64,000 nt of DNA from Acidobacteriota bacterium (lineage in GTDB: Bacteria > Acidobacteriota > DATKUA01 > JAFGBY01). The notes below the pieces were generated by a model, which did not search any database, had not been told where the DNA came from, and saw nothing but the letters and a program-made list of their open reading frames with translations. The position numbers and the translations under genes are program-made. This document shows, piece after piece, positions 5,798 through 37,054 of this stretch (within the stretch, counting starts at the first letter, position 1; each line of letters starts with the position of its first letter). The stretch is from the NCBI GenBank assembly GCA_016932915.1, contig JAFGBY010000030.1, forward strand, positions 9,671 through 73,670, in the 5' to 3' direction.

Positions 5798-8005
5798 TTA
5801 TTTTTTAGATTCTGTCTTTTCCTGCTCTGCAATTGCTGACTGGACTTTCTTCATCTCAGAATTCAGCCAATTAAATTCGATCCAATTCCTGCATTTCGAA
5901 CGGAGATTATTTATCGCTTCCAATCTCGCCTTAAGTGCAGGTAAATGTTTTGGATTGTGAATCAGGATTATATCCGTCATATGAAGAGCCTTGACCGGCT
6001 CACCTTCCGCAACGAGCGCGCTCGCTTTTGCAGCTACTTTACCCGCGTCACCTATCAAAGCAACCAGATCCGGATAAATATCGCTAGTGGGAACAGGATA
6101 CATATTTGAGATATTGGTATCATACCATCCAAGATATCCCTCAAAAATACCACGAACATCCCAGGATACCCTTCCAAATGCTTCCGGTATACTTATCTCA
6201 TCCGGTAGTTTTATCTCTTTCATCAACGTATGAACATCCTTCCCAAGATTCATTCCTTTAACAGTCTCATCATGGATATATCTTACTGCATCGCGGTACT
6301 TTGTCAGTTTCATCTTGATAAAATCTTTACCGATAAGTGGTTCGCCGTGACCAGGAAGCAGAATTTCAGGTTCGTAAGAAAGTGCTGTTTCAAGCGCTTT
6401 TATGTATTCAAGAGCTGGCCTTGTTTCAGATCCGCGAAGTGTAGACATATTTGGAACAGAAGAATAATAATTATCGCCTATCAGAACTGTTTTAATCTCA
6501 GGAATCCATATAACGCATTGATCCGGGGTCTCGCCACCGACATGAGTCATAACAAAAGATCTATCCCCAGATTTGTACGTGTAATTATCTATAAACAGCT
6601 CAGTCGCTTTTAAAACCGGCACTTTAGTTTCTACTGTCGGTTGAGGTATATCTTGTCCTGTCTGTTTTGCTATCCGGATTTTCTCGATACTATCAAGCAT
6701 GGAGTTATACCTGACGAAATTCTCATATTCTCTCTGTGCGATCACAGGAATATCTTTACCGTTTTTCCAAAGGTCAATCCCTTCTGTGTGGTCATCATGA
6801 CCATGAGTAAGAAGAATAGCTTTTACATCACCTCCGTGGGCCATCTTGTACAACCAGTTGCCTTCTTTCGAAGCTCCACCCGGATCAAGCATAACATTTC
6901 CTGTTGAAGTCCTGGCCAGGTATGAATTACACGAATTTTCTAATCGGTACAGGTTATCAGTAATCTTGAGGCTTTCCATCACCGTCGTTTCCAGCCAGTT
7001 CTTAACCGAAGCATCAATCTTAAACTCTTTGGCCCAATCGGGGTGAGATTGTATATAGCTCTCATCAACCAGTACATCAATCCCGCTGAAATCGGATATT
7101 TTTTTACCTTCAGGTAGTTTTTCGTGATGTAAAAGTGGATAAAAATTCTTCTGGTCAAGCAACTTGATCTTGTTAAATCCGGGTTTTTTTAACAAGATTG
7201 CGCTTATCACAGCTTGATGGAGAAATGTATATTGCATCCTGCTGGTACAGGCTTTACCTACATATTCTTTATCCTTAGCCAGCTTTTCAAAAGTATCTCT
7301 CCACTGACGTAATATTTTCTTTTCCGGTCTTACAGATACTACACGACAATTTATATAAAATCTGACATTCTTTGAATCAACAACCGTTTCAACGAAAGGA
7401 ACTTCATCCCTATTGATCCCCACTTCTTTATAAATTCCTGACCAGAACGGGCTTATTTCTTTTTCTTTTTCTTCACCAATTCCATTAGTAAGGTATACTG
7501 AAGTGGTCACCGCTTCAACATTGTCTGAAAGCGAAAGGAACGACGGCTCCTTTAGGAAAAACATATGGTTATCAAAATAAACAAGATTGCAGCCGGCGCC
7601 ATCAAGCATCTCCTCAGCTTGAGCTGCCGCATAAACCTTGTGAGCAAACGGGATTTTCGCTGCTTCACTATCTATTTTAAGCGGAAAAGTTTTAACGTTA
7701 TATTTCTCCAGCCATTTATAGCTTTCTCCAAAATCCGGGTTATAAAATACAAGGAAAAGACTGTCCTTATATTTACCGCCGAACTCGTTAAGGCTTTTGA
7801 TTAACATCTCTGCCTGCCGGGTATCAGAGGGTAGCCCGATATAAAGAGCAAACACCATATCAGTAACATCCTGTTTCTGAATCTGGTATACCTTCCTATT
7901 TGTATCCTGGTTGCTGTCTCCCAGAACAAAACTCCCGAAGACCAGCAGCGCAATTACTAGAAATATTCCAATTCTTTCTTTGACTATAAACCTGCTATTT
8001 ATCAC
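5798..8005 (-). CDS. MBL-fold metallo-hydrolase of the alkyl/aryl-sulfatase (SdsA1/YjcS) type with an unrecognised ~380-aa N-terminal domain. Start re-assigned to the GTG at 8005.
   Basis: HxHxDH zinc motif (ILLTHGHDDHTEGID). The downstream segment resembles the alkylsulfatase dimerisation domain (EGYLGWYDTNISNMYPVP). A perfect SD (AAGGAGG) sits 5 nt upstream of the GTG at 8005, and the TTG at 8032 has no SD. N-terminal TM anchor. Confidence 0.55.
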   Translation of the reverse strand: MINSRFIVKERIGIFLVIALLVFGSFVLGDSNQDTNRKVYQIQKQDVTDMVFALYIGLPSDTRQAEMLIKSLNEFGGKYKDSLFLVFYNPDFGESYKWLEKYNVKTFPLKIDSEAAKIPFAHKVYAAAQAEEMLDGAGCNLVYFDNHMFFLKEPSFLSLSDNVEAVTTSVYLTNGIGEEKEKEISPFWSGIYKEVGINRDEVPFVETVVDSKNVRFYINCRVVSVRPEKKILRQWRDTFEKLAKDKEYVGKACTSRMQYTFLHQAVISAILLKKPGFNKIKLLDQKNFYPLLHHEKLPEGKKISDFSGIDVLVDESYIQSHPDWAKEFKIDASVKNWLETTVMESLKITDNLYRLENSCNSYLARTSTGNVMLDPGGASKEGNWLYKMAHGGDVKAILLTHGHDDHTEGIDLWKNGKDIPVIAQREYENFVRYNSMLDSIEKIRIAKQTGQDIPQPTVETKVPVLKATELFIDNYTYKSGDRSFVMTHVGGETPDQCVIWIPEIKTVLIGDNYYSSVPNMSTLRGSETRPALEYIKALETALSYEPEILLPGHGEPLIGKDFIKMKLTKYRDAVRYIHDETVKGMNLGKDVHTLMKEIKLPDEISIPEAFGRVSWDVRGIFEGYLGWYDTNISNMYPVPTSDIYPDLVALIGDAGKVAAKASALVAEGEPVKALHMTDIILIHNPKHLPALKARLEAINNLRSKCRNWIEFNWLNSEMKKVQSAIAEQEKTESKK

Positions 8006-8416
8006 CTTGTCCTCCTTCAAAAAAGCAGTCAACCCTTTTAGGGTCCATTGATAATAAACGGCGCTTAGTGAAAGATGTTCTGAATAACAGATGAAATAAT
8101 GAAATATATTGTGTGTTTTATTAAATCATTATATATAAAAATTGAACTATCAAAAAAACATAACCTCAAAGTTCCTCATCACTTTAACCGAAAAAATCAT
8201 GTCTTATATTTAACCACTAATACGGAATACTATTCTAAAATATAAGGTATTAAAGTTATGTATGAGAAATAAATGATAAATATATAAAGCTTCTCAAAAC
8301 TTTCAAAGGCAAATATCGTTAGTATTAAGTTGAAATGTTGTATTTTTGGTAATTCTGATAAGAAGTTGTATAATATCAAGGACAATTGATATTTACTATT
8401 ATTGAAGGGCAGAAAG

Positions 8417-8827
8417 ATGGTAACACAAAAAATTAAAAAAATACTGGTATTCTTATCTTTTGTTTTCCTTGCTCTTATCCTCAATACTTCATGCGCTTCC
8501 AAAGCGACACTGGATACAGACTATGAACTAAACCTTAAATTCGGGAACGAACTGGCAAAAGGATCTCTCTGGAAGGAAGCGATTATAAGATGGGAAAACG
8601 GGCTGAAAATGAAACCCAATGACGCAAGATTCCATAACAACCTCGCAATTGCATATGAGAATGAAGGGAATTATGAAAAAGCGGAATATCATTATAAAAA
8701 AGCTATACAGTTGAACCCAACGAACGAAATAATCCAGATGAACTGGGAAAGCTTCCAGGGTGTTCTTAAGAATATTAAAAGCACCGAGGATGATAAAACG
8801 GAGGGTAATTCTGATGATAAAAAATAA
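8417..8827 (+). CDS. Small TPR-repeat lipoprotein
   Basis: Signal peptide plus lipobox (LALILNTSCASK). TPR units (FHNNLAIAYENEGNYEKAEYHYKKAIQLNP). ATG at 8417, and the track start at 8402 is a TTG. Confidence 0.6.
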   Translation: MVTQKIKKILVFLSFVFLALILNTSCASKATLDTDYELNLKFGNELAKGSLWKEAIIRWENGLKMKPNDARFHNNLAIAYENEGNYEKAEYHYKKAIQLNPTNEIIQMNWESFQGVLKNIKSTEDDKTEGNSDDKK

Positions 8828-9548
8828 AATCATTAGTAAACTAACATCAATAACGGCTCTAATCCTTTTCAGTGCCCTGATACTTACCATGTTTTCATGC
8901 GGTACATCAAAATATGGCAACAGTATGAATGTAATGATCACCCACAGGACCGAAAGTAAACTGGATATAAAAGATATAAGGACCGTTCTTCTAGCAGGAT
9001 TTGTAAAAACGACCGAAAACAGTTTCGATATTTTAAAACCGACATATGATATCCTAAAACAACAACTGGCTTCCAAGGCAAGTTTTCTTATCCTTTTCGA
9101 AAACCCGCTTGATCTGACCAAAACCAAGATCATCGATAAAGCAAAGAAACAGGAATATGAAGCGAAAGACATCTTTCAATCTCCAGAGATATGGATAGAA
9201 ATAGCAGCTAAATATAAAGTCGATATGATCATTACCGGAGAAATCGGCTTTTCTAATGAGATAGGTAAAGACCTGGTTAAGCTGACCAAATTCCAGGATA
9301 ACAAAGAAGTTACACTCAGCCAGGTAGTCGAAAAAAAGTTTTTCAAACTTGATTTTGTTATCTATATGATCAGCGGCAAAACAGGGAAAATTATACATAC
9401 TGAAAAAATCTACAAAGCAGTGGGCAGGGAAACCGACACAGAAGAATCAGAACCAATACTAATAAATCTCATCCGCGGTTCATTGGAAAACTTGCGAGAG
9501 ATGATGGTTGTTAAATCTAATCCAATCCAAAGAACACTCCTGGAGTAA
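8814..9548 (+). CDS. Hypothetical lipoprotein. Its start overlaps the previous gene by 14 nt.
   Basis: MIKNKIISKLTSITALILFSALILTMFSCG signal peptide/lipobox. No recognisable catalytic motif. Confidence 0.45.
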   Translation: MIKNKIISKLTSITALILFSALILTMFSCGTSKYGNSMNVMITHRTESKLDIKDIRTVLLAGFVKTTENSFDILKPTYDILKQQLASKASFLILFENPLDLTKTKIIDKAKKQEYEAKDIFQSPEIWIEIAAKYKVDMIITGEIGFSNEIGKDLVKLTKFQDNKEVTLSQVVEKKFFKLDFVIYMISGKTGKIIHTEKIYKAVGRETDTEESEPILINLIRGSLENLREMMVVKSNPIQRTLLE

Positions 9549-9558
9549 GGAGAACACA

Positions 9559-12465
9559 ATGAAGACAATAAAAAGCATTTCTGTTTTAATTATTCTTTCC
9601 ATCTTGGTTTCACCGGTTATGTTTTCTCAAACATTTGGTAAGAATAAGGTAAATTACGACGATTTTGACTGGATGGTTTATAAAACCCCGCATTTTGATA
9701 TATTCTATTATTCATCAGAAGAACATCTTCTCAATACGTTCACGCAGTGGCTCGAATCATCCTATATTTATCTTTCAAAAAAGTATGATTGGGTTCTTTC
9801 AAAAAGAATTCCGGTATTCTTCTATAAAACTAAAAGTGAATTTGAACAAACGACTTTGTACCCCGCCTTCCTTCCCTGGAATATTGAAGCTTTCGCTGAA
9901 GGCTTGAGAAACAGGTTCGTAATACCGCTGGATCAACCGCCGGCAGCGATGCAGCAGCTTATTGTGCATGAAATGACCCACATTTTTCAATACGATATTT
10001 TTTATAATCTAAGTTATGCCAAGAGAATACTGGCGACGCCACCAATGTGGCTTATGGAAGGTATGGCTGAACATAGCGCCAGGGGATACACTACAGAGGA
10101 TGAAATGCGTGTCCGGGATATAGTCCTGCATGATGCTGTGCCGGATATCCGTCAACTTGGATCCAGCCAGTTTATTGCGTACCAACTTGGACAGACTATC
10201 ATCGACTATATGGTAGACAGATACAACCAGGAAGGCTTCAATTCTCTTCTGCAATACCTCAGACGCAATGGTGCTGGTGGGGAAAACGTGCTGAAAGGTA
10301 TCGAAGATGTATTTAAAATCACACCTTATGAATTCAGCAATGAATGGCGCAAGTGGTTACGAAGCAAATATATGGAAATGCTGGTAACTAAAAAAGAAGC
10401 GAGCGATTATGGTGATTCAATCAGCCAATCAATAAGACTCAGAATCTTCGGACTGTCATTATCTCCTTCCGGTGAATTGATTACGGCTTTCACAAGCGAC
10501 GGTCTGGATCTCGATATTGCACTTCTGTCTGCAAAAGATGGACACATGATTAAAAACCTAACATCGGGATTGAACGAGGAATATGATTACCTGATAGGGG
10601 GCGAAATAACACATAGATTCCATGGCGGAAAAGATATAGCGTGGTCGCCTGATGGAAACACAGTAGCTGTTTTCGCAAGAACCGGCCAGAAACGTTCCCT
10701 ATTTCTCCTGGATGTATATACAGGAGTTATAAAAGGGAAATTCAGTTTAGAACTTGACCAGGCGCTTAATCCTGAGTTTACAATTGATGGTAAATCTGTT
10801 TTGTTTTCAGCTATTAAAGCAGGAACAAGCAGAGATATTTATAAACTCGATATTGCATCAGGAAAAGTAGAACAGCTTACAAAAGATAACTATTTCAACT
10901 TTGCACCGACTGCATCTAAAGATGGTAAATATGTTTATTTCTTCTCAAACCTTAACGGTTACCGCAAGTTATTCAGATTCCCGATGGATGACCCGTCCAA
11001 AAGAGAACAGATAACTTTCGGTAATTGGAATGACCTGTTCCCATCAATTTCACCAGACGGCAAACGCCTTCTATATATCTCCGATGAAACCGGTATCTAC
11101 AATGTTTATGAAATTGATCTGGAAAACAGAGAAAGAAAACAATATACAGATGTGTTCAGCGGGATTTTCAATCCACAATACACATTAAATAGTGAAACTA
11201 TACTGTTCATGAATTATAACAAGATGGGTTATCAATTCTACAGAATGACCCTGAATAACCCAATCATTGTAAAAAAGATTGATCCAGTAAAGGATGCTCA
11301 AGAACAGAACACCATACGAGCTGATGCCGATTCCTGGAAGGAATGGAATACAGGTTCCACTTATCTTCCTCCAATAGAAGTATCAAAAGATAAACTCGTA
11401 AAAGAACCTTCTTATGATTTCTTTGTAGATGATCTTAACATCAACGCAGGTATGTCCTCCGATGGGACACTCTTGACTCTCTCATACCTGCAATTCAGCG
11501 ATATAACTTCAGCAATCAAATTCCGTTTGAACTTCGCTACAATCGGTTCTTATCGAAATGTCGGGCTTGTATACCTTAACCAACAGGAAAGACTCAACTG
11601 GGGTTTCACTCTATTTGACTATACAAGATATTTCAATTCAAACCTGAATTTCAGCCAGAATGTCAGCAGCGAGCTCCAAACCCTGACTGTTGAAAATATG
11701 GGAGCCACACTCTTCGGTTATTATCCCTTCAGCACGGAAACCAGGTTGGAAGTATCACTTGGTTATGAAAACAGGGATTACAGTTACACAAACGAACTTA
11801 GGGAACAACTCGGTAGCGTAGAAAACTATAATCAATTCTACCAGAGATTTAAAAGCGGTAACTTTGCTCCAATAAGTGTTTCGCTGGTTCATGACAGTAT
11901 TCAATATTATAACTATGAACCTCTCACTGGAACCCGTTTCAGGCTTTCTGCCACACATTCTGTAAAAATTGGCGATGCTATTGACAGCTACACCGATTTC
12001 AATATCGATTACAGGACCTACCTGATGATATCCAGGGATATCGTACTGGCAGTCAGGTTAGTTGGAAACCATAGCTTCGGTGATTCACCTAACATATATT
12101 TCTTCGGAGGTACAGATACCGTAAGAGGCTTGGATTACCTGGAAGTTAACGGTAATACTACATTCTATGGCAACTTCGAATTGAGATTCCCAATAACAAA
12201 GATGGTTGAACTTCCATTCGGAATTTACCTCAGGACAATTCGAGGCCTGGTATTCTTCGATGTAGGTGGAGCTTTCTATGAGGGTGATGATTTCAAATTT
12301 TTCACGGATAACGATTTAATACTGGAGGATGCAGTTGCGGCATATGGGTTCGGATTCAACTTCAACTTTGGCGGCCTAGAATTACACTTTGAATGGGCCA
12401 GGCAGACCGATTTATCCGTAGCCGATGACTGGGAATTCCAGTTCTGGATAGGATATAAATTCTAG
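9559..12465 (+). CDS. Large outer-membrane protein with three regions: an N-terminal gluzincin-like metallopeptidase domain (HEMTH...E), a central TolB/PD40-like beta-propeller, and a C-terminal beta-barrel ending in an aromatic residue.
   Basis: SD AGGAG lies 9 nt upstream of the ATG at 9559. Signal peptide. HExxH (LIVHEMTHIFQYD) with a downstream MEGMAEH. PD40-like repeats (AWSPDGNTVAVFA; SISPDGKRLLYISDETG; FNFAPTASKDGKYVYFFSNLNG). Glycine/aromatic-rich alternating strands and the terminal ...WEFQFWIGYKF (C-terminal Phe). Confidence 0.6.
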   Translation: MKTIKSISVLIILSILVSPVMFSQTFGKNKVNYDDFDWMVYKTPHFDIFYYSSEEHLLNTFTQWLESSYIYLSKKYDWVLSKRIPVFFYKTKSEFEQTTLYPAFLPWNIEAFAEGLRNRFVIPLDQPPAAMQQLIVHEMTHIFQYDIFYNLSYAKRILATPPMWLMEGMAEHSARGYTTEDEMRVRDIVLHDAVPDIRQLGSSQFIAYQLGQTIIDYMVDRYNQEGFNSLLQYLRRNGAGGENVLKGIEDVFKITPYEFSNEWRKWLRSKYMEMLVTKKEASDYGDSISQSIRLRIFGLSLSPSGELITAFTSDGLDLDIALLSAKDGHMIKNLTSGLNEEYDYLIGGEITHRFHGGKDIAWSPDGNTVAVFARTGQKRSLFLLDVYTGVIKGKFSLELDQALNPEFTIDGKSVLFSAIKAGTSRDIYKLDIASGKVEQLTKDNYFNFAPTASKDGKYVYFFSNLNGYRKLFRFPMDDPSKREQITFGNWNDLFPSISPDGKRLLYISDETGIYNVYEIDLENRERKQYTDVFSGIFNPQYTLNSETILFMNYNKMGYQFYRMTLNNPIIVKKIDPVKDAQEQNTIRADADSWKEWNTGSTYLPPIEVSKDKLVKEPSYDFFVDDLNINAGMSSDGTLLTLSYLQFSDITSAIKFRLNFATIGSYRNVGLVYLNQQERLNWGFTLFDYTRYFNSNLNFSQNVSSELQTLTVENMGATLFGYYPFSTETRLEVSLGYENRDYSYTNELREQLGSVENYNQFYQRFKSGNFAPISVSLVHDSIQYYNYEPLTGTRFRLSATHSVKIGDAIDSYTDFNIDYRTYLMISRDIVLAVRLVGNHSFGDSPNIYFFGGTDTVRGLDYLEVNGNTTFYGNFELRFPITKMVELPFGIYLRTIRGLVFFDVGGAFYEGDDFKFFTDNDLILEDAVAAYGFGFNFNFGGLELHFEWARQTDLSVADDWEFQFWIGYKF

Positions 12466-13238: not shown

Positions 13239-13946
13239 TCATCGGATCAACTTGCGCGCATTTTCTTTAAGCCACTGCCTGGCACGTTTAAATTCAGGAA
13301 ATTGACGTTCTTTCCTCCTGAATTCTGCAGGATGTTTCGATAACCTGTTTTTAACTATTCGAGAAGGGTAAATAGCATGTAAAATTTCATGATACATTAG
13401 GTATTCCATCACATACCCTGGAATCTTGGCATTATCTAGTATTGAATTGAAAGTAATGAGGTTATAATCTTTTCTGTAATGTGCATAATAGCTCCGGACA
13501 GATTTCTTACTCCACCCTGTTTTCAAATTCGCAGGCTTCTCACCATTAAAATGGAGATTAATAACTTTCTCATATAAATGATCAAGATCGTAATGTTTGC
13601 CTTCAGCATCATTAATAAGTTTATCAATACGATCAGGATTCCCGATATACGGTTCAATTTCAGCTGAATACTGTTGAAAAATAACCCGGTCTGTCGCAAG
13701 AGGCCTTCGCCTCATTATCTTATGTATCATCATCCTGCCGCCGGCTTTTAAAGCTTCAATATCATTCATTGGCAGCCTTTTATTGTACCGTATCAGCAAT
13801 CCATATTTTTTTACGAATATTTTAATAGTGATAGCGGAGTAATTATAAAACTCAACCTTAACAAATTGCCTTGATGCCTTGCTGTTCTCCCGTCGCCAAT
13901 AGCTGGTCAGGTAGGTTTCAAGGCTTTGTAATAGATTCTCTTCCAT
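13239..13946 (-). CDS. YgjP/DUF45-like (SprT/M48-like) HExxH metal-dependent hydrolase
   Basis: C-terminal YLMYHEILHAIYPSR motif in a ~235-aa basic protein. Family assignment is from memory of the DUF45 signature. Confidence 0.45.
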   Translation of the reverse strand: MEENLLQSLETYLTSYWRRENSKASRQFVKVEFYNYSAITIKIFVKKYGLLIRYNKRLPMNDIEALKAGGRMMIHKIMRRRPLATDRVIFQQYSAEIEPYIGNPDRIDKLINDAEGKHYDLDHLYEKVINLHFNGEKPANLKTGWSKKSVRSYYAHYRKDYNLITFNSILDNAKIPGYVMEYLMYHEILHAIYPSRIVKNRLSKHPAEFRRKERQFPEFKRARQWLKENARKLIR

Positions 13947-14095: not shown

Positions 14096-15895
14096 ATGAC
14101 TAAAGCTAACGTTTTATATCTATTAATAATCCTGGTAATTGTAATTAACTTTTTCTTTCCCTCAGAAATAAATCCACTTATTCAACTGGGCGGGATATAC
14201 GCAATATTCCTTGTTTATATCTCACTTAAAATCGAAGTATTGTATCTAAATAAAAAACTATCTGTTGAAATCCAGAATGCTATTTTCATCTTCCTTGCTA
14301 TTTTAATCTTCTTGATAACAGCAGTCCATGGTGTGTACCTATCGAACAGCAGGGATTATTTTTACATTTTTATGGGATATCTGTTCCTGGCCTCATTTAT
14401 CGGTTCAGTCATGCTCAAGGAGGAATGGATATGGAGAAGTTTTAAGATTCTTGTATTTACTTCATCAATTATCTGCATGTATGCCCTTGCGCAATATCTA
14501 ACCAATTTCTTCGGATTAGCAGATAAAATCGCTGAAATAAAAAACCTGGATCCTTTTATCAGGGATTCTCTCATACAACGACTGGCGGATAAACGGGTTT
14601 TCGCATTTTTTTCTTTACCAACCACTCTAGCAGCATTCCTGGCTTTAATAATGCCCATTGTGGGGGTCCTTTTTATTAGATCAAAAGGAATTAAAAAAAT
14701 TATTATGGCAATTATACTGGGTCTGCATCTTGTCATTCTCTTCCTTACTCAATCATACGGCGGTATTTTAACCCTGTTCGCTGCTGTAGGTGCAGTATGC
14801 CTTCTGATATTGTTCAACAGAAGTAAAAACAGATTAAAAACTATTGGCTATGTATTCTTCTTGATTATAATCGTGGCTGGCGGAATTTATTTGCTGGGTG
14901 AGATCCGCGGCAAGTTATTTGATTTCAGTGATCCTAAAAATCCGGTAGTGTTGCGTCTGACTAACTGGAAAGCAGCTACCAATATTATAAAAGATTATCC
15001 AATGGCCGGCGTGGGCCTCGCAAACTACAAAACAGTTTATCCACAATATTATCAACCAGGCTGGCAGCCATCTGAATTTGCTCATAATACGTATTTACAA
15101 ATTGTAAGCGATGTGGGAATTCCGGCAGGAATAATTCTATTCTTGCTCTTCATCTATTGGTTATGGATGATATTGAAAAAATTCTTTAGCGCCTGCGAGG
15201 CAGCCGATAAAAACCGGCGACAACTCTGTACTGCCCTCTTGATGTCCTCATTTGCCTTTTTGTGTAATAACCTATTTGAAATAAACACCTATTATTTTAG
15301 CTTGGGTATTATGGGTATCTTCATCCTGGCACTGACTACTAAAGTATTGAACCAGGCAAAGGATTCCCAGGAAGGAATTATTTATAATATCCAATTAAAA
15401 AATCATGAGAGCCAGGTGAAGTTCAGGGAAAAGGAAGCGACAATTGTCCTAATTGTTTTATGGTTCATTGTAACAGGCCTGCTCATCCAACGCTTTATCG
15501 GACTGGTTTTTTATAAATCAGCTTCTGACTATTTTAAATCAGGGCATTATACTGTAGCTGAGGATGATATAAGAATTTCAAAATTCGTTGACCCGATAGA
15601 TTCAGAATATTTCTATCTCGATAGTAGAATAAAAACAGAAAACTTTAAAATCACAAAAGATAAAAAGGAAATTGAAAGAGCCATCGAACTCGCTGAGCAC
15701 TCAATTTCGCTTAATCCTCAAATGCCTTACCTACACCGAAACCTGGCATATATATATATCAGGGCAGGAAGAAACTGGGATGCATTAAGGGAATACTATA
15801 AAGCGGATTCACTGTTTCCCATGACAGAAGAACATAAATCCAATCTGGAAGATTTAAAGAAAGCACTAACAGACCCAAATTATGAAAAAAAGTAA
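14096..15895 (+). CDS. Polytopic membrane protein of the O-antigen ligase/Wzy-like type with a C-terminal TPR domain
   Basis: ~10 predicted TM helices with a large loop (Wzy_C-like). C-terminal soluble TPR-like region (NLAYIYIRAGRNWDALREYYKADSLFP). Confidence 0.5.
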   Translation: MTKANVLYLLIILVIVINFFFPSEINPLIQLGGIYAIFLVYISLKIEVLYLNKKLSVEIQNAIFIFLAILIFLITAVHGVYLSNSRDYFYIFMGYLFLASFIGSVMLKEEWIWRSFKILVFTSSIICMYALAQYLTNFFGLADKIAEIKNLDPFIRDSLIQRLADKRVFAFFSLPTTLAAFLALIMPIVGVLFIRSKGIKKIIMAIILGLHLVILFLTQSYGGILTLFAAVGAVCLLILFNRSKNRLKTIGYVFFLIIIVAGGIYLLGEIRGKLFDFSDPKNPVVLRLTNWKAATNIIKDYPMAGVGLANYKTVYPQYYQPGWQPSEFAHNTYLQIVSDVGIPAGIILFLLFIYWLWMILKKFFSACEAADKNRRQLCTALLMSSFAFLCNNLFEINTYYFSLGIMGIFILALTTKVLNQAKDSQEGIIYNIQLKNHESQVKFREKEATIVLIVLWFIVTGLLIQRFIGLVFYKSASDYFKSGHYTVAEDDIRISKFVDPIDSEYFYLDSRIKTENFKITKDKKEIERAIELAEHSISLNPQMPYLHRNLAYIYIRAGRNWDALREYYKADSLFPMTEEHKSNLEDLKKALTDPNYEKK

Positions 15896-17840
15896 AATAA
15901 TCCCACAAAAAGAAACTTTCCTGAGAACATTAAGAGGAATTCTACTCTTATTATTCTTTATCACATTACCGGTTTATAAAGGATCAACTAGCAATGATGG
16001 AATAATGATCTTCCAGAGTTTCCTGTTGATTTTTATTTTTGCATCTGTAATGCCTCAGATATTCAGAACCGGCCGCTTGAGAAAACTGATCACAATCGAT
16101 TTAATCATTATCCTGGCGATTGCACTTTGTTTTTTTCATATTTTGTTTTCTGTGGAAAAATACTCCAGCATAATGCTTTTCACAAATGTTCTACTTACCG
16201 GTCTGTTTTTTATCTTTTACCTGAACCCTATGGATGAAATGGATTTACACCGGTTATGGGTATTCTTTATTCCAGGATATATTATTCAGGTCATAGTGGG
16301 AATTTATCAGCTATTCTTTACCAATATTGAAGCCCTCCGGGGCAGCTTTCGTGATCCGAATTACTACGGCCTTTATTTAACAGTAGGCGCATTAATAACT
16401 CTGGGATTTGCCTTATTTGAATCCAGAACCAAGTTTTTTCTCAAAGTTATTATCTACAGTTCGATCCCAATCGTCTTAATCCTTATTATTATGACAAAAT
16501 CTCGATCAGCGGCAGGAATTTTCATGATTCTGCTCACCGGCATTCTGTTATTTAAAAAGCCGAAATATTCAATTATTGGTATTGCGTTAATAGCGATGGT
16601 AATCATTTTGCCTAATCCATATAAAAACCAGATAAAGGAAACTCATGAGACGGACCCTTATGCATATACAAGAATCGATATATACAAAATGGATCTGAAG
16701 ATGTTTGTTGATCACATGATTGTCGGTACTGGATTAGGTTGCTTTGAAGAATATTCCCCTGAATATAATTTCCCGGTTGAAACAGTAATCGGTCGATACC
16801 GGCAAACACCAAGGCAGGCCCATAGCAGCTATTTCCATTGGATAATTGAAACGGGATTACCTGGACTTGCCTTGTTAGGAATATTTTTCTACATCGTCTT
16901 AAAAAGCTATTTAATTAATATAACTAACATTCTCAAAAAAAGACGGAAACCGAACTATACAACTGGAATTCACTGTGCTCTTCTGGCAATGCTCCTGATG
17001 GCATTATTTCATAATGCACTACATAACAATGCAATCTTCTTGTTAACAATTCTCTCTGTCTCGACGGTTCTAAAAACAGCCAATATGAAGCGTTATAAAA
17101 CTAAAGATTTCGTGATAATTAAGATATTAAGGGAGTGGCGCCTTCTGGCGATTGCATCAACAGTCGTGATCTTCATATGCCTTTTTTATTTCCTTATTTA
17201 TGCTCCCTGGCGCTCACAGGATAAAATAGAAATGGCCCAAAATAAATATGATTTCAATCAATACAAGGATGCATTAAGATATTCAGAGGAAGCGATCCGC
17301 CTAATGCCATTATTCCCCAAAGCTTATATCATGCGAGGCCAAATTTACCAGGATCACTTTCATAGGAATGAAAACCTCAATTCCGCTTTTACCGCCCTTT
17401 TCGAATATGAAAAAGCTGCAGAAATTGCTCCAAGAAATCTAAACGTTCTGGATAGACAATTAGAAATTCTGATATTTATTGAAGAGTATATTCATAAATC
17501 CAATCCCTCTATCTATCTCCCTGACCTCGAGGAAAGAATAATCCGTCTGTACGAGAAAAAAATCGCGTTAGCACCAAAGAATGTTTTTACTCTTTATAAT
17601 TATTCAAATTATCTCGCCAAAAAAAATATTCATGAGAATGCCATCCGTCTTCTATTACATGCAACGGAACTTGAACCAAATTTTGTTGGCGCTCACAGGA
17701 TACTGGGAGAATTATACATGATCGAAGGTAACGCTAAAGAAAGTCAATATCACCTGCAGAAGGTTTTAGAAATTCAATCAAAATATAATTACAAAGATTA
17801 TATAGAACACGATCATTATCTGGCCCAGTTACTGCGGTAA
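15882..17840 (+). CDS. Second Wzy/O-antigen-ligase-like membrane protein with a C-terminal TPR domain. Tandem paralogue of the upstream gene, overlapping it by 14 nt.
   Basis: Same architecture as 14096-15895. C-terminal TPRs (AYIMRGQIYQDHF...; AHRILGELYMIEGNAKESQYHLQKVLEIQ). Confidence 0.5.
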   Translation: MKKSKIIPQKETFLRTLRGILLLLFFITLPVYKGSTSNDGIMIFQSFLLIFIFASVMPQIFRTGRLRKLITIDLIIILAIALCFFHILFSVEKYSSIMLFTNVLLTGLFFIFYLNPMDEMDLHRLWVFFIPGYIIQVIVGIYQLFFTNIEALRGSFRDPNYYGLYLTVGALITLGFALFESRTKFFLKVIIYSSIPIVLILIIMTKSRSAAGIFMILLTGILLFKKPKYSIIGIALIAMVIILPNPYKNQIKETHETDPYAYTRIDIYKMDLKMFVDHMIVGTGLGCFEEYSPEYNFPVETVIGRYRQTPRQAHSSYFHWIIETGLPGLALLGIFFYIVLKSYLINITNILKKRRKPNYTTGIHCALLAMLLMALFHNALHNNAIFLLTILSVSTVLKTANMKRYKTKDFVIIKILREWRLLAIASTVVIFICLFYFLIYAPWRSQDKIEMAQNKYDFNQYKDALRYSEEAIRLMPLFPKAYIMRGQIYQDHFHRNENLNSAFTALFEYEKAAEIAPRNLNVLDRQLEILIFIEEYIHKSNPSIYLPDLEERIIRLYEKKIALAPKNVFTLYNYSNYLAKKNIHENAIRLLLHATELEPNFVGAHRILGELYMIEGNAKESQYHLQKVLEIQSKYNYKDYIEHDHYLAQLLR

Positions 17841-20542: not shown

Positions 20543-20617
<75 letters not shown>

Positions 20618-28772: not shown

Positions 28773-30101
28773 TTATTTATATACTTTAAAATGATTAATT
28801 GCATCCTCGGCAAAATTCGGACTAACATAATCATTGATAGATACAGCCTTACCTGAAACAATACGTATCTCCCGGCTCCTCCTCTGCTCATTCCATTGCG
28901 GGTGTGAGTAGGTTACCCGGTAATTGCCCGGGTTCAATGGAATCTGAGCCGGCGAAACTTTTACTGATTCATCGAGAGTAATTATTTGGCTATTGTCAGT
29001 ATTGACTATCTCATCGATAACAGCATATGGTTTCACGTTAAAAATAAGATTCCCCGCGATAATTCCACCAGTAGTATCCGTTTTATTAAATACAGCAACC
29101 CATAAAATAAAAACAATTGCCAGAACGGCAAATACGCTACCGGCAAGTATGGGAAAATTTTTCTTCCCTCTCTTCGTCTCTTTCTTCTTTTCTTCTTCCT
29201 GTTTCCCGTAATCTATTTCAGTATCTACAATAATGGTTTCCATTTTGTCATCGACTATCATTGTCGGTTCCTGAACATGAAAACCCTGTGTCGTGACTTT
29301 CTGGATCAGTCTTTCGATATCATCCGCCATCGCCTTCATTGTAGGATAGCGGTTTTCAGCCTTCTTCTGTAATGCTTTTTCACAAATGGAAACCAACTCT
29401 GGGAACCTGGATGTGGAAATATCAGAAAAACTTTTAGGCTCTTCACTTAAGATTTTATAGAGAATCGTGGAAATATTATCTCCGGAAAATGGCTTTGTAT
29501 AAGTAAGAATTTCATAAAGGATGACGCCTACCGCAAATTGATCCGAACGTCCGTCTACCTTTTTCCCGCTGACCATCTCAGGAGACATATAATGCGGAGT
29601 GCCCATGATTGTTCCGGTTTTGGTAAGGCCGGAGGTCTGCATGGTTGCCAGGCCAAAATCCATTATCTTTATCGTGCCGTCTGCCAATACTTTGATATTT
29701 GCCGGTTTAATATCACGGTGAAAAACATCATGCTTATGCGCATAATCAAGGCCAAGGCAGATCTGGCGAATAATATCCAGTTTCTCCTTTAGCGCCATAT
29801 CAGGTTTGGAAGCAATAATCGCATCGAGGTCTTTGCCCTCGAGTAATTCCATGGCAATAAATAGCTGGCCATCCTCTTCACCAAAATCGTAGATCGTAAT
29901 AATATTATTATGGCGCAGCTTACCGGCTGAACGGGCTTCACGTATAAATCTTTCCTTGAGGTCGGCATCAGATTCTGTAGATGATATCGTTTTAATTGCA
30001 ACTTGCCGCTCGAGAGTGGGATCGAACGCAAGATATACAACACCCATAGCGCCTTTCCCCAGTTCTTTTTCAACCCGGTATTTTCCGAAATTAGTTTTCA
30101 T
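28773..30101 (-). CDS. Hanks-type Ser/Thr protein kinase with a TM segment and a C-terminal extracytoplasmic PEGA-like domain
   Basis: GKGAMGVVYLA...AIK (subdomains I-II), HRDIKPANI, DFGLA, GTPHYMSPE. TM FPILAGSVFAVLAIVFILWVAVF. C-terminal VKVSPAQIPLNPGNYRVTYSHPQWN. Confidence 0.8.
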   Translation of the reverse strand: MKTNFGKYRVEKELGKGAMGVVYLAFDPTLERQVAIKTISSTESDADLKERFIREARSAGKLRHNNIITIYDFGEEDGQLFIAMELLEGKDLDAIIASKPDMALKEKLDIIRQICLGLDYAHKHDVFHRDIKPANIKVLADGTIKIMDFGLATMQTSGLTKTGTIMGTPHYMSPEMVSGKKVDGRSDQFAVGVILYEILTYTKPFSGDNISTILYKILSEEPKSFSDISTSRFPELVSICEKALQKKAENRYPTMKAMADDIERLIQKVTTQGFHVQEPTMIVDDKMETIIVDTEIDYGKQEEEKKKETKRGKKNFPILAGSVFAVLAIVFILWVAVFNKTDTTGGIIAGNLIFNVKPYAVIDEIVNTDNSQIITLDESVKVSPAQIPLNPGNYRVTYSHPQWNEQRRSREIRIVSGKAVSINDYVSPNFAEDAINHFKVYK

Positions 30102-30178
30102 GAAGAGCCCTCTTAAACTTATGATTTATTATATATTGTACAACTATTAAACTCAAGCAGCCACTTATGCAGAACGCT

Positions 30179-31702
30179 TTAGTGATTATTCCCGGAAAGC
30201 TCAACTTCTATATCATCAGATGCACTATGATCGAGCCTTATTTTTCTGCGCCCCACTGAAACCACCCATGTTTCCCCATCATCCACCCTGCTTTCGAGGA
30301 CAATGCAATTGCCTTTTTTTAAACCCGATTTCTTTGCGCGTTCACCGATTGCTGTGACAGTTGCCTCGGAACCTGTGCGTAGCAGGCTCAACTGAAACTT
30401 TTTACCCTTCGCAACTTGTAATGGATCTGCCGGAATCGACTCCCCGTGAGGTCCCTCTTCCGGGTGACCCAGCATACCGTCGATATAACCGATTGCTTCG
30501 TTATCGTGCAGATGTTCCAGGTGATGGGCTATGCTGTGAACCTGACCTTCGGGCGCCCCAACTTTCTGTAAATAGGTCTCCCAGAGACGATGAGCTCGTA
30601 ATATCCTTACTGCTTCTTTCTCCCCTGAATCGCTGAGCTTGAATCCGCCATCGGAAGAGATAAGCATTTCATCCTGGGTCAACAGGCGGAGGCCTTTCGA
30701 CAGATACTTATCGTGTGAATGAATGTAACCCTTGATAACCTGTTCACTGACAGGTTTACCTCCCTCACGAAGGATAGTCACCAGGATATCCTCAGTGAGT
30801 TCCTGTGGAATCATTCGCATCCTGCGGAGCTTCTTCGCAATCATCCCGTAGCGTGGAGCAACCGCAAGGACAAACAGAAATTGGAAAGTACAGAATAGCA
30901 TAATCGCCCCGCCGCCGGATGAATCGAGCCAGATGCTTATATATAGCCCCCCGATAACACTTGTCGTCCCAAAAAGCGCTGCGAGAAGCATCATCCGGTC
31001 AAGCCGGTCACTCAGCAGGTATGCCGTAGCAGCGGGCGTAATGAGCAGGCCCACAACAAGAATTACACCAACCATGCTGACAGCGCTAACGACTACCAGT
31101 GAAACCGAGGTCGTCAGCAGGTAATCGATCAGCACCACCGGAATTCCTATAGAAGCCGCCATGATGGGATCAAACGCGGTAATCTGGAAATAACGGAAGA
31201 ATAATATAATCAAGGTCAGGACAATCGACGCTACGATTGCCGCCACCCAGAGGTCGCTATCCGCGATTCCAAGCACATCGCCCATTATGAAATGGACTAT
31301 ATCGATATGAATATATTCATGGAAAACCGAAACCAGAACGACGCCGGCAGCAAAGATGCCTGTATAAATAATTCCGATTGCGGTATCTTCCTTTATCCTT
31401 GAAATATTTGAAACAAAACCTATCAACGCCACGGTCACAACCGCAGCAATTATGGAACCGATCAGCATCGCAGGGGCGTATGCCTCCACGTCGAATATCA
31501 GCTTCATAAAGAGGTAACCGCCGCTCACTCCTGCGATCATAGCGTGCGAAAGGGCATCACCCAGGAAGGACATCTTCCTTAGAATAACAAGACATCCGAT
31601 GACAGAGCAGACTACCGCGGCTATTGTCCCGCCGATCATCGATTTTACGAAAAATGCCTGGCCAAGCGGTTCGATAAAAGCGGTATGGAGCAGTTCTATC
31701 AT
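30179..31702 (-). CDS. Metal (Zn/Mn/Fe-type) ABC transporter permease fused C-terminally to a complete DtxR-family metalloregulator (HTH + metal-binding + FeoA/SH3-like)
   Basis: N-terminal ~290 aa form an ABC-3 type permease (8-9 TM). Residues ~300-507 parallel DtxR along their length (RAHRLWETYL vs RKHRLAERLL; HSIAHHLEHLHDNEAIGYIDGMLGHPEEGPHGESIP vs the DtxR metal-site region; terminal SH3-like ...KGNCIVLESRVDDGETWVVSVGRRKIRLDHSASDDIEVE). Confidence 0.7.
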   Translation of the reverse strand: MIELLHTAFIEPLGQAFFVKSMIGGTIAAVVCSVIGCLVILRKMSFLGDALSHAMIAGVSGGYLFMKLIFDVEAYAPAMLIGSIIAAVVTVALIGFVSNISRIKEDTAIGIIYTGIFAAGVVLVSVFHEYIHIDIVHFIMGDVLGIADSDLWVAAIVASIVLTLIILFFRYFQITAFDPIMAASIGIPVVLIDYLLTTSVSLVVVSAVSMVGVILVVGLLITPAATAYLLSDRLDRMMLLAALFGTTSVIGGLYISIWLDSSGGGAIMLFCTFQFLFVLAVAPRYGMIAKKLRRMRMIPQELTEDILVTILREGGKPVSEQVIKGYIHSHDKYLSKGLRLLTQDEMLISSDGGFKLSDSGEKEAVRILRAHRLWETYLQKVGAPEGQVHSIAHHLEHLHDNEAIGYIDGMLGHPEEGPHGESIPADPLQVAKGKKFQLSLLRTGSEATVTAIGERAKKSGLKKGNCIVLESRVDDGETWVVSVGRRKIRLDHSASDDIEVELSGNNH

Positions 31703-32475
31703 ACGGCTGCCTCCTTCGCTTTCAACTCGGTGAAAACACGGAGGTTTCCTTCATAGACTTCACTGAGGAGATCAGTATCCAATACCTTCTCAGGCGGGCC
31801 ATATGCATAAAGACGTTGCTTGATCAAAATAATCCGGTCGAAGTATTCGGCTGCGGTCGCAAGGTCATGATGGACAACAATAAGAGTCTGCCCGTTTTTC
31901 TTGGCAGCTTCGAGGACATCCAGTATCGCCCGCTCCGTGGCGGCATCGACACCTGCGAACGGTTCATCAAGAAGTAACAGATCCGCTCCCTGCGTGAGAG
32001 CCCGCGCCATGAATACCCTCTGCTGTTGTCCACCGGAGAGCTGGCCTATTTGCCGTTTACGGAAGTTCTCCATCTTGACCATCTTCAGCGCTTCATCCAC
32101 CAGATCTCGGTCATCCTTTCCCGGATTTTTCCACCAGGCGATTTTCCCGTATCTGCCCATCAACGCCACCTGCTCGACGGTCACTGGAAAATCCCAGTCC
32201 ACAGCGCCCCGCTGGGGAACGTAAGCAACTTTGCCTTTTGATTCGGCCAGGGGATTCCCGAATACATTTACCGAGCCGAAATCAGGCTCTATAAAGCCAA
32301 GAATCGATTTAAGTAAGGTCGACTTGCCCGAGCCGTTCGGCCCGATAATGCCGACCATTATCCCGGGCGGTATATCAAATGAGATGTCCAGCAGGGCAGG
32401 TTTCGGGCCGTAGCTGACCGTCAGGTTCTTCACCTGCAATGCCGATTCCAAATTACTACTTTTTTTCCCCGCCAT
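31699..32475 (-). CDS. Metal ABC transporter ATP-binding protein (ZnuC/MntA/TroB-like)
   Basis: Walker A GPNGSGKSTLLK, signature LSGGQQQRV, Walker B LLLLDEPFAGVD. Confidence 0.85.
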   Translation of the reverse strand: MAGKKSSNLESALQVKNLTVSYGPKPALLDISFDIPPGIMVGIIGPNGSGKSTLLKSILGFIEPDFGSVNVFGNPLAESKGKVAYVPQRGAVDWDFPVTVEQVALMGRYGKIAWWKNPGKDDRDLVDEALKMVKMENFRKRQIGQLSGGQQQRVFMARALTQGADLLLLDEPFAGVDAATERAILDVLEAAKKNGQTLIVVHHDLATAAEYFDRIILIKQRLYAYGPPEKVLDTDLLSEVYEGNLRVFTELKAKEAAV

Positions 32476-32480
32476 ACCTG

Positions 32481-32966
32481 CTAATTATCCTTCGCCTTGT
32501 CCTCATTAAAAACAACTGTCATCACTACAGGTTCCTCCGGCTCGAACCAGAACACATCGGAGAAATATTTCACCCCATCCTTTTTTATCTCAACATTCAC
32601 TGCAGCTGGGCGTGTTGCGTCTTCAGAAGATCTTGATAGCTCTATAAAAACTTCGTTCTTTCCCTCGATGATTCCCGGGAGATTATTTATCCTGAATGTG
32701 CTGTCAAACGGTGATTTCATCATCTCGCCCGTAAGCCTCATTCCATTGATACTGATCACCGCATTCTCCCCGCCTTGAGCGTTCAGGAGGAAAACCTCTT
32801 CCCAGCTGATTTTAAACGTCGTGGAGATATCCAGGGTATAAATACCTTCCGCTTTTTCGGGCTCCGCAATGTGATGAGTTTCCTCCCCTGTATCACGGAT
32901 ACCCATATAGAGAAACAGGCCACCGATGAGCAGCACGTTTATAAATATCGCAATTAATGGCCTCAT
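32481..32966 (-). CDS. Hypothetical membrane-anchored periplasmic protein within the metal-uptake operon
   Basis: N-terminal TM (LIAIFINVLLIGGLFLYMGI) followed by a ~130-aa soluble domain with His/Glu-rich stretches. No identifiable family. Confidence 0.35.
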   Translation of the reverse strand: MRPLIAIFINVLLIGGLFLYMGIRDTGEETHHIAEPEKAEGIYTLDISTTFKISWEEVFLLNAQGGENAVISINGMRLTGEMMKSPFDSTFRINNLPGIIEGKNEVFIELSRSSEDATRPAAVNVEIKKDGVKYFSDVFWFEPEEPVVMTVVFNEDKAKDN

Positions 32967-32974
32967 CCGTTTTT

Positions 32975-33889
32975 CTACTCCAGAGCTTTCACAATTTTTA
33001 ATACATTCTCGCGCATCATCCCAATGTAAGTATCTCCCGCCGTGCCGTGTTCACCCATTGAATCGGAATACAACTCACCACCTATCTTAATGCCCGTCTC
33101 CCTCGCAATCTCACGGATGAGCTTGGGATTAACGCTGGTCTCCACGAAAAAAGCCCTCACACCCATCTTTTTGGTAGATTCAATTATCTCGATCCTGCGT
33201 TTAGGCGTCATCCCCGCCCCTATCTCTGAGCCGGTCGACCAGCCGACAGGCGCTTGAGCATCGATATTATACGTCCTGCCGAAATAATTGAACGCATCAT
33301 GGCTCGTAATTAGTATCCGCCTATGGGGCGGTATCCTGCTTACTTCTTTCTTGATCCAGGCATGAAGGTTCCGCAGCTGCTGCAGATAAAGCCTGGCCCT
33401 CGCTTCGTACTTTTCCTTGTTTATCGGATCGAGTTTACAAACCGCTTCCGTAATGTTGCGAACGTAGACAGCGGCGTTCCTGGGATCAAACCAGGCATGA
33501 GGATCAGGAACAGTCTGCCCGCTTTTTTCAATTATCAATGGTTCGATCCCGTCCGTGCAGGTGACGATCGGTTTACCCGCATCCTTCGCAAGTGTCGCCA
33601 TCCAGTTTTTCCCTTCGAGATGAAGGCCGTTCTCGAAACAGAGGTCTACGCTTGCAGCGCGCTGGGCATCACCCGGAGTAGGCTGATAAGTATGAGGGTC
33701 AGCTCCCGGCGGAAGCACTGCGTAAACAATGCAGTCATCACCTACTACGTTTTTCACAAAGTCATTAATCTGGGTGGTCGAACAGAATAAAACCGGTTTG
33801 CCTTCTCTTTCGGCAGCTAATAGAAAAAAGGAAAAAACAACCAGGATAAAAACTATATACAAAAATGAGGTTTTAATATTTTTCATCAA
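32975..33889 (-). CDS. Metal ABC transporter substrate-binding protein (cluster A-I, ZnuA/TroA/MntC-like)
   Basis: Signal/TM anchor. Conserved metal-ligand regions (PPGADPHTYQPTPGD; ITSHDAFNYFGRTYNI; YSDSMGEHGTAGDTYIGMM). Confidence 0.8.
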   Translation of the reverse strand: MMKNIKTSFLYIVFILVVFSFFLLAAEREGKPVLFCSTTQINDFVKNVVGDDCIVYAVLPPGADPHTYQPTPGDAQRAASVDLCFENGLHLEGKNWMATLAKDAGKPIVTCTDGIEPLIIEKSGQTVPDPHAWFDPRNAAVYVRNITEAVCKLDPINKEKYEARARLYLQQLRNLHAWIKKEVSRIPPHRRILITSHDAFNYFGRTYNIDAQAPVGWSTGSEIGAGMTPKRRIEIIESTKKMGVRAFFVETSVNPKLIREIARETGIKIGGELYSDSMGEHGTAGDTYIGMMRENVLKIVKALE

Positions 33890-33985
33890 ATGTTTGGACC
33901 AATGGTTAATATAAAGAATCGTTTAGGAATCCATTTTACCAAATCTTTTCTGAACATCAACAAAGCACTGAAAATACTCATACAA

Positions 33986-33998
33986 TACATAAAATGTA
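33986..33998. promoter_or_regulatory. 13-bp perfect palindrome TACATAAAATGTA overlapping the predicted start site of the metal-uptake operon promoter. Candidate operator for the fused DtxR-like domain.
   Basis: Seen in sequence. Minus-strand promoter elements TTGCTG (rc of 34034-34039) - 17 nt - TTATAA (rc of 34006-34011) place the TSS near 33998. Confidence 0.3.
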
Positions 33999-34151
33999 CT
34001 TCGCGTTATAATTTCTATAAAACAAAATCAGCAATTTTGCGTTTATTATTGTGACAGACATAAAATAACCTCTCTGGAGTGGTTAGGTAAAAACGGGTCA
34101 CAATGTAACGGCCCGTTTTTTTTATCATTCTAAAACATTCCCCTATCTTTC

Positions 34152-34179
34152 TTGACAATTTCATACACGGAATTATAGT
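34152..34179 (+). promoter_or_regulatory. Sigma70-type promoter (TTGACA - 16 nt - TATAGT) upstream of the Rieske/cyt b/CydA-like operon. It implies a ~170-nt leader.
   Basis: -35 at 34152-34157 and -10 at 34174-34179. The first gene's ATG is at 34356 with SD AGGAG. Confidence 0.45.
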
Positions 34180-34355
34180 ATCAGTGAATGGATAATATCT
34201 CCCGGATATGTTCACTAATAGTCAAACAACGGTTAAGAACGCAAATTTAAGGTCTTTATATAAATAGAACTCCTGAGGCATCCGGAAAATAATATGCACT
34301 CAGAGTAGTTAATATTATTAACAATTGTATTTTGGGAAAAGGAAGGAGACCTCTT

Positions 34356-37042: not shown

Positions 37043-37054
37043 AGGAGGTGGAAG

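Follow-up and report, generated by a model that had tools for sequence, protein, structure and literature searches.

A WD40-like Omp85 protein with a predicted gluzincin peptidase domain and its conserved partner genes in an Acidobacteriota bacterium

The main protein and its domains

The subject of this work is a gene located at positions 9559-12465 of a 64,000-nucleotide stretch of Acidobacteriota DNA (GenBank assembly GCA_016932915.1, contig JAFGBY010000030.1, forward strand), which we call the window. It encodes a large envelope protein in which a predicted zinc peptidase domain, a beta-propeller and an Omp85-type outer membrane barrel follow one another, and it is the last of a cluster of three genes. 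Our analysis establishes the domain composition of this protein, its membership in the Omp85 superfamily, the conservation of its motifs and the existence of the gene cluster. The features of the main gene are listed below.

9559-12465, + strand: main open reading frame (ORF), WD40-like/peptidase Omp85 protein; 968 codons, stop codon TAG at 12463-12465
9559-9627, + strand: predicted type I signal peptide, residues 1-23 (MKTIKSISVLIILSILVSPVMFS), with predicted cleavage before Q24 (reading of the sequence)
9628-9657, + strand: conserved mature N-terminal tail QTFGKNKVNY, residues 24-33 (alignment)
9652-10428, + strand: predicted clan-MA gluzincin peptidase domain, residues ~32-290, nearest Pfam families Peptidase_MA_2 and M9 (hidden Markov model [HMM] matches, motifs)
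9967-9981, + strand: HEMTH zinc-binding/catalytic motif, residues 137-141 (conservation)
10048-10068, + strand: WLMEGMA, residues 164-170, with E167 as presumed third zinc ligand (conservation, alignment)
10444-11277, + strand: six-bladed TolB/PD40-type beta-propeller, residues 296-573 (Pfam, NCBIfam, PDB, AlphaFold2, Foldseek)
11278-11421, + strand: linker, residues 574-621, with a helix at 576-591 and a low-confidence segment at 586-604 (AlphaFold2 structure and its predicted local distance difference test [pLDDT])
11422-12462, + strand: 16-stranded Omp85-type beta-barrel, residues 622-968, strands 622-964 (AlphaFold2, Foldseek, NF047779)
12106-12132, + strand: extracellular loop 6 (L6) signature GGTDTVRGL, residues 850-858, between strands 11 and 12 (conservation)
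12253-12267, + strand: strand-13 lid-lock motif FFDVG, residues 899-903, within strand 890-906, of the BamA/TamA type FxDxG (conservation)
12433-12462, + strand: last strand EFQFWIGYKF with C-terminal Phe, beta-signal-like (F968 in 120/120 homologues)

The barrel belongs to the Omp85 superfamily, in its BamA/TamA form, and is not a generic anchor. A first-pass annotation of the window had proposed a C-terminal barrel ending in Phe, and the AlphaFold2 model, built on 120 homologues (mean pLDDT 86.7; predicted template modelling score [pTM] 0.85), bears this out with 16 strands modelled at high confidence and an invariant terminal Phe. Foldseek aligned the barrel with BamA, both as barrel-only entries and within beta-barrel assembly machinery (BAM) complexes, at E=2e-10 to 1e-9, with TM-scores of 0.6-0.66 relative to the barrel-only targets. 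Omp85/TpsB proteins are recognized by two signature motifs, (V/I)RG(Y/F) at the tip of L6 and (F/G)xDxG on strand 13, the latter being FxDxG in BamA/TamA and GxDxG in the TpsB translocators (PMC4490367). Both motifs are found in the expected places, and we counted their conservation, as for all motifs below, in 120 homologues that are 33-61% identical to the query. In the L6 motif (V855-R856-G857-L858 in the query), G850, G851 and R856 are kept in all 120 proteins and G857 in 113; F or Y occupies the fourth position in 68 of the 120 homologues, and the query has L there. In the lid-lock, F899 is kept in every homologue, D901 in 119 and G903 in 113. The longer loops of the model are L3 (18 residues), L4 (24), L6 (25) and L7 (19), while all seven periplasmic turns span 2-8 residues. 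Pfam PF01103 does not match the query at E<=1; its scores on the homologues are 47-78 bits, against a gathering score of 24, and many of these also have precomputed PF01103 matches.

Two better-known kinds of barrel protein were considered and set aside. A classical autotransporter (type Va, 12-stranded barrel) is ruled out by the 16 strands, the Omp85 motifs and the lack of any autotransporter match in Pfam or NCBIfam. A canonical BamA is rejected as well, the protein having no polypeptide transport-associated (POTRA) domain, carrying a peptidase and a propeller instead, and scoring below the NCBIfam Omp85 cut-off.

The propeller had been described in the first pass as several PD40/TolB-type blades. 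The AlphaFold2 model contains six, of four strands each, and the region matches PD40 at E=1.3e-15 (Pfam) and TIGR02800, the NCBIfam model of TolB, at E=1.3e-26. The latter match covers residues 361-566, that is, the propeller only, and its 93.5 bits stand against an equivalog cut-off of 343. TolB is also the best counterpart in the PDB, by sequence (E=1.7e-17) and by fold (Foldseek, E about 1e-12), and nothing but TolB came back when the full protein was compared by sequence with the PDB. Further Pfam matches of the propeller, precomputed ones included, are to DPPIV_N, Tricorn_N and Tricorn_2nd. PDB entry 1k32, to which we return with the published work on this subfamily, is presumably the Tricorn protease. 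A true TolB is ruled out by the score of TIGR02800 below its cut-off, the missing TolB N-terminal domain and the neighbouring genes, which are not tol-pal. Between propeller and barrel, Pfam, NCBIfam and the AlphaFold2 model all agree on the absence of a POTRA domain; the model has a helix and a disordered linker there.

The N-terminal domain (residues ~38-277 in the AlphaFold2 model) is mainly helical. The HEMTH motif and downstream Glu that had been taken as gluzincin-like are present, and their conservation shows that the motif is not fortuitous: H137 and E138 are kept in 119 of the 120 homologues, and H141, W164, E167, G168 and Y208 in all of them. A chance HExxH is ruled out by these counts. 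When the N-terminal domains of the family were isolated, 44 of 50 matched Peptidase_MA_2 (E<=0.01) and 44 of 50 matched Peptidase_M9, and the NCBIfam flagellinolysin HExxH model matches residues 128-240 of the query. A profile of the domain found marginal matches in the PDB, to the M1 aminopeptidase 3cia (E=0.03) and the M9 collagenase 9l5o (E=0.33). Both alignments cover the segment of the Glu ligand, WLMEGMA being aligned to WLNEG in 3cia and to WWSEGIAEY in 9l5o, and the 3cia alignment spans HExxH too. The Foldseek list for the full-length model is dominated by TolB and BamA and holds no structural neighbour for the peptidase domain. On these sequence signals, the N-terminal domain is best classified as a clan-MA gluzincin domain that forms its own family, without a specific MEROPS assignment, and the predicted peptidase is very probably catalytically competent.

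As for the ends of the protein, an AGGAG Shine-Dalgarno sequence lies 5' of the ATG at 9559. A TTG at 9508 would give a longer ORF on paper; we prefer the ATG because it is followed directly by a canonical signal peptide (residues 1-23) and because the homologues begin in the same way, with the same h-region and then Q-x-FGKNK. The protein was correctly described as secreted in the first pass, and its length is 968 residues plus a stop rather than the 969 given there; an identical 968-residue protein is held by NCBI (entry P0001) under the title 'MAG: PD40 domain-containing protein [Acidobacteria bacterium]'. Few stretches of the protein are as well conserved as the mature N-terminal tail (N29 and K30 invariant, G27 and K28 at least 90% conserved), and AlphaFold2 leaves it unstructured, with pLDDT <50. 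It may act as a strand onto which a partner docks, or it may plug the active site. Scans for promoters and terminators gave nothing above the shuffled expectation.

The subfamily and the partner genes

The query is a member of a catalogued, uncharacterized subfamily of Omp85 proteins, and its architecture is not new. Heinz & Lithgow (2014) distinguished ten bacterial subfamilies in the Omp85/TpsB superfamily, among them the 'WD40-Omp85' or 'WD40-like' class, and recognized subfamilies without POTRA (PMC4104836). Their Table S2 gives architectures of PF07676 with PF01103; in Table S3, the Phyre matches are to BamA/TamA, to TolB and to a 'best aminopeptidase hit' (1z5h, 4kxd, 4fgm), and Tricorn-interacting factor F3, aminopeptidase N and 1k32 are among the matches reported (PMC4104836). 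The architecture called unusual in the first-pass annotation had therefore been on record, aminopeptidase-like matches included, since 2014. A later paper, from 2024, ascribes 'divergent WD40 and peptidase domains' to the class.

The main text of PMC4104836 reads the WD40-like class as a BamA-BamB-like fusion or platform. This reading, together with TolB as the best match of the propeller, would fit a non-catalytic scaffold, in which the protein tethers the outer membrane to peptidoglycan or to partners in a TolB-like manner and the peptidase-like domain is a binding module. We consider such a scaffold highly improbable: sequences that share about 34% identity retain every zinc ligand and the catalytic Glu without exception, as an active enzyme would, and the TolB-like features stop at the propeller, with neither a TolB N-terminal domain nor tol-pal genes nearby and with 93 bits for TIGR02800 against the 343 required. 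An active peptidase remains our preferred reading of the N-terminal domain.

With more than 1340 homologues of ~970 residues, this is a large subfamily; the peptidase domain forms 1911 clusters at 50% identity, nearly always at the N terminus of proteins that are mostly 900-1150 residues long. No fewer than 541 GTDB species genomes encode a relative. All of the best 80 loci come from Acidobacteriota (Thermoanaerobaculia, Holophagales, Vicinamibacteria), and the breadth beyond this phylum is taken from the accession list of PMC4104836.

Two genes precede the main gene.

8417-8827, + strand: first cluster gene, small tetratricopeptide repeat (TPR) protein of 136 residues; signal peptide, possible lipobox LNTSC (Pfam)
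8814-9548, + strand: second cluster gene, predicted periplasmic protein of 244 residues of the FlgT_M/PelC/CsgG/LpoB fold class (homologues, AlphaFold2, Foldseek)

Both genes were already reported in the first-pass annotation, with their overlap, and are present as described: they share 14 nucleotides, a GGAGG Shine-Dalgarno sequence lies ahead of the ATG at 8814, and a 10-nucleotide gap separates the second gene from the main gene. The proposal that the three form a unit stands, as a conserved cluster. In 75 of 83 loci, a TPR gene is found 0.8-1.5 kb upstream of the main gene, and most of the others are short of upstream DNA. In all 75 TPR-bearing loci, an ORF of at least 227 residues ends just 5' of the main gene, and homology to the 244-residue protein was established for 71 of them (iterated HMM search, E<=1e-41, with no shuffled decoy recovered). 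We limit the unit to three genes because the wider neighbourhood differs between lineages.

The TPR protein matches TPR_11, TPR_1 and TPR_2 (Pfam, E about 1e-11 to 1e-12). Both upstream products had been put down as lipoproteins, and here the two part ways. A lipobox is present in the TPR protein in at least 42 of 75 loci, which suggests a lipoprotein in many of them. In the family of the 244-residue protein, 113 of 121 members have an AxA|G signal peptide without Cys; the window copy has MFSC, and the Cys occurs only in the window's lineage. To judge from these signal peptides, lipoprotein status would apply at best to that lineage.

The 244-residue protein has no Pfam match of its own, and a word-indexed homology search with it found the query alone; a profile built from the syntenic ORFs was required to reach its family, which has at least 1432 members. 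FlgT_M matches 9 of 10 syntenic homologues, 2 of them above the gathering score. Its AlphaFold2 model (pLDDT 72.8) matches the FlgT/LPHT ring in Foldseek (3e-7) and also PelC, including the PelBC transporter 9h80, CsgG, HpaA, GNA1162 and LpoB, with TM-scores of 0.3-0.6. This fold class is one of small periplasmic proteins or lipoproteins located under outer membrane barrels or rings. Residues 138-205 of the model form three long strands of 13-24 residues in an extended hairpin sheet; CsgG and PelC are ring-formers.

At the distant locus L084 (2340-3967), a gene of the 244-residue type is retained beside the main gene (26.5 bits), and the place of the TPR gene is taken by that of a 151-residue secreted protein without a recorded Pfam match. 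Since L084 keeps the middle gene and lacks the TPR gene, the middle gene and the main gene make up the core pair.

These fold matches raise the possibility that the barrel is the working part and serves to insert or export a dedicated substrate. In that case, a periplasmic funnel would be built from the TPR protein and a PelC/CsgG-like ring, as in PelBC or CsgG, with the peptidase maturing the cargo or setting it free on its way through. The TPR protein, the PelC-like protein and the barrel do mirror the parts of PelB/PelC, the fold matches extend to PelC (9h80 included), CsgG and the FlgT ring, assembly or translocation is the general Omp85 function (PMC4104836), and the lid-lock motifs and C-terminal Phe are invariant. 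However, no conserved candidate for a cargo gene adjoins the cluster, there is no POTRA to receive a substrate, at least one lineage does without the TPR gene, and the 244-residue model is of moderate quality, with the pLDDT and TM-scores given above. Taking both sides together, we regard a dedicated exporter as unlikely, and we favor the periplasmic peptidase complex described below.

The remainder of the window holds several other features. Downstream of the main gene, at 13239-13946 (- strand), a 235-residue ORF with a HEILH motif has no Pfam match at E<=1e-4; its product may be an unclassified small metallopeptidase, judging by the motif. At the same place, locus L001 carries a syntenic 238-residue gene without Pfam matches. 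Two tandem, overlapping genes for Wzy_C (O-antigen-ligase-like) membrane proteins follow at 14096-15895 and 15882-17840 (+ strand), the second product having clear C-terminal TPR repeats, and the pair is conserved downstream in L001. On the other side of the cluster, 5798-8032 (- strand) encodes a 744-residue protein with ~350 N-terminal residues without family assignment, followed by metallo-beta-lactamase and alkyl-sulfatase dimerization domains. The G+C content rises to 0.46-0.49 in 30001-38000, versus 0.35-0.43 over most of the window, and one tRNA gene at 20543-20614 (+ strand) is the sole Rfam match in the window.

Orientation and proposed role

Because the extracellular L6 lies between strands 11 and 12, odd-numbered strands lead from the periplasm to the outside. 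Strand 1 thus begins on the periplasmic side, where the N-terminal enzyme and propeller are therefore expected as well. The distribution of long loops and short turns in the AlphaFold2 model agrees with the BamA pattern. The N-terminal ~600 residues, peptidase and propeller together, thus probably face the periplasm, as predicted from the sequence and by analogy with every Omp85 protein of determined topology, with which a periplasmic N terminus accords. In PlpD, an enzyme domain long believed to be secreted was shown experimentally in 2024 to be periplasmic (PMC11116518).

The first-pass annotation had described the protein as a surface-anchored metallopeptidase. In that case, the barrel would both translocate and anchor the protein, by a type V-like self-secretion that leaves the peptidase and propeller exposed outside the cell, and the enzyme would digest external proteins for nutrition or in interactions with other cells. 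Omp85/TpsB barrels are able to translocate polypeptides, as FhaC does, M9-like peptidases are typically extracellular, and display was considered possible for enzyme-Omp85 fusions by Heinz & Lithgow (PMC4104836). The features of this protein point the other way. FxDxG is the insertase form (BamA/TamA) and not the GxDxG of TpsB, the conserved lid-lock with the VRG of L6 implies a closed barrel, and a folded peptidase-propeller of 600 residues would need passage through 16 strands. Strand parity and turns of 2-8 residues likewise place the N terminus in the periplasm, the co-encoded partners have periplasmic-type signal peptides and fold classes, and PlpD, the sole studied Omp85 protein with an N-terminal enzyme domain, proved periplasmic (PMC11116518). 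Surface display is, in our judgment, distinctly unlikely, and the claim of surface anchoring is not upheld.

A periplasm-facing zinc metallopeptidase complex tethered to the outer membrane is the best explanation of the data as a whole, and we give it about an even chance of being right. The protein would be exported by the Sec pathway and lose its signal peptide, after which its C-terminal 347 residues would fold into the 16-stranded BamA/TamA-type barrel. The L6 lid-lock would seal this barrel from the outside, and the N-terminal ~600 residues would be suspended from strand 1 into the periplasm, where an active gluzincin-type zinc peptidase is predicted to pack against the six-bladed propeller. 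The FlgT/PelC/CsgG-fold protein and the small TPR protein would probably assemble with the main protein under the outer membrane. The complex may cleave periplasmic or envelope polypeptides, with the propeller as a selector or gate for unfolded chains or peptides. This substrate class, and with it a role in the processing or quality control of envelope proteins, is a tentative suggestion and should be held more loosely than the location and the activity.

In this complex the propeller would restrict or deliver substrates, as propellers do in Tricorn, DPP-IV and prolyl oligopeptidases, and the Tricorn_N, Tricorn_2nd and DPPIV_N matches fit such a part. On a narrower view, the protein is a nutritional periplasmic oligopeptidase: the propeller would admit only short peptides, as in those enzymes, the gluzincin would trim them and the barrel would be a mere tether. 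The precomputed Tricorn_N, Tricorn_2nd and DPPIV_N matches on the propeller, the 2014 Phyre matches to Tricorn-interacting factor F3 and aminopeptidase N (PMC4104836) and the weak M1 aminopeptidase match all lean in this direction. A tether alone, however, would not require an Omp85 barrel with invariant lid-lock residues, and the conserved partners would be left unexplained. Moreover, the M9 endopeptidase signal in Pfam equals the aminopeptidase-like one, and no peptide or amino acid transporters are linked to the cluster. We find a nutritional oligopeptidase quite unlikely and retain the tethered envelope peptidase complex.

Several points weigh against this complex as proposed and should be set beside the evidence for it. 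The orientation is deduced from homology and strand parity. The query scores 23-27 bits against Peptidase_MA_2 (residues 78-267), below the gathering score of 32.4, and its match to the NCBIfam model NF047779 (Omp85_fam; E=1.8e-9, residues 719-934) reaches 37.6 bits against a cut-off of 200. No substrate is indicated by the data, the wider neighbourhood varies between lineages and gives no hint of a pathway, and a full-text literature search found no functional study of the WD40-like Omp85 subfamily. As to the scores, the Peptidase_MA family suggested in the first pass is missed by the query at its curated threshold and recovered by the family, both in the isolated domains counted above and in distant members, which score 35-58 bits and so exceed the gathering score. 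We assign the query to the Omp85 superfamily and to the gluzincins because of its motifs, the structure prediction and these family-level matches, its own scores being below the curated cut-offs.

A bolder version of the envelope peptidase would make the three-gene unit a self-contained machine for outer membrane protein quality control, a covalent 'BamA plus BepA', in Acidobacteriota and other phyla. The barrel seam would capture stalled or beta-signal-bearing substrates, the propeller would thread them, the gluzincin would degrade them, and the FlgT/PelC-like and TPR partners would regulate the process. We offer this as a speculation with little likelihood of being correct in all its parts.

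Omp85 proteins are central to the building of the outer membrane, and the subfamilies without POTRA have no assigned function. A large subfamily in which a BamA-type barrel bears an apparently active protease, and which has conserved partners, offers a tractable entry point. It opens questions about uses of Omp85 barrels beyond insertion and about envelope proteolysis in poorly studied phyla such as Acidobacteriota. The main value of the present analysis lies in the conserved partner genes and the breadth of the family, as a route to the function of POTRA-less Omp85 proteins.

Comparison with known systems

The closest comparison is with the WD40-like subfamily itself. The query shares with it PD40 repeats joined to an Omp85 barrel (PF01103 in the 2014 catalogue), the lack of POTRA, a barrel modelled on BamA/TamA, a propeller modelled on TolB and an aminopeptidase-like N-terminal region, and it does not differ from it in kind. 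The HExxH site, the partner genes and the abundance in Acidobacteriota are not treated in the main text of PMC4104836.

With BamA/TamA, the protein has in common the 16 strands, the VRG motif of L6 between strands 11 and 12, FxDxG on strand 13, long L4, L6 and L7 and a C-terminal aromatic residue. It differs in having a peptidase and a propeller where POTRA domains would be, in a shorter barrel of ~347 residues and in its score below the NCBIfam Omp85 cut-off. Its propeller resembles that of TolB, a six-bladed PD40 propeller and its best match by sequence and fold, whereas the TolB N-terminal domain and the tol-pal operon context are lacking and the equivalog cut-off lies far above its score.

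PlpD likewise fuses an N-terminal enzyme domain to an Omp85 barrel, and that enzyme stays in the periplasm. PlpD, however, is a homodimer that combines a patatin lipase with one POTRA, while the query combines a metallopeptidase with a propeller and has none. For the partners, the parallel is with the PelBC, CsgG and FlgT rings: the 244-residue protein shares their fold class, and the set of TPR protein, small alpha/beta protein and outer membrane barrel resembles PelB-PelC. In contrast to these systems, the fold match is moderate, the homologues are mostly non-lipidated, and no polysaccharide or curli genes are linked.

Finally, the closest functional analogy, and the one behind the proposed role, is with BepA, a zinc peptidase of family M48 that carries a TPR domain and attacks stalled substrates at BAM. 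Both systems would bring a periplasmic zinc metallopeptidase and a TPR module to an Omp85 barrel, in BepA for outer membrane protein quality control. The M48 enzyme BepA is a polypeptide distinct from the barrel and includes its TPR domain, whereas in the query a Peptidase_MA_2/M9-like domain is fused to the barrel and the TPR protein is separate. The likeness to BepA would be one of function, by analogy, with no homology implied.

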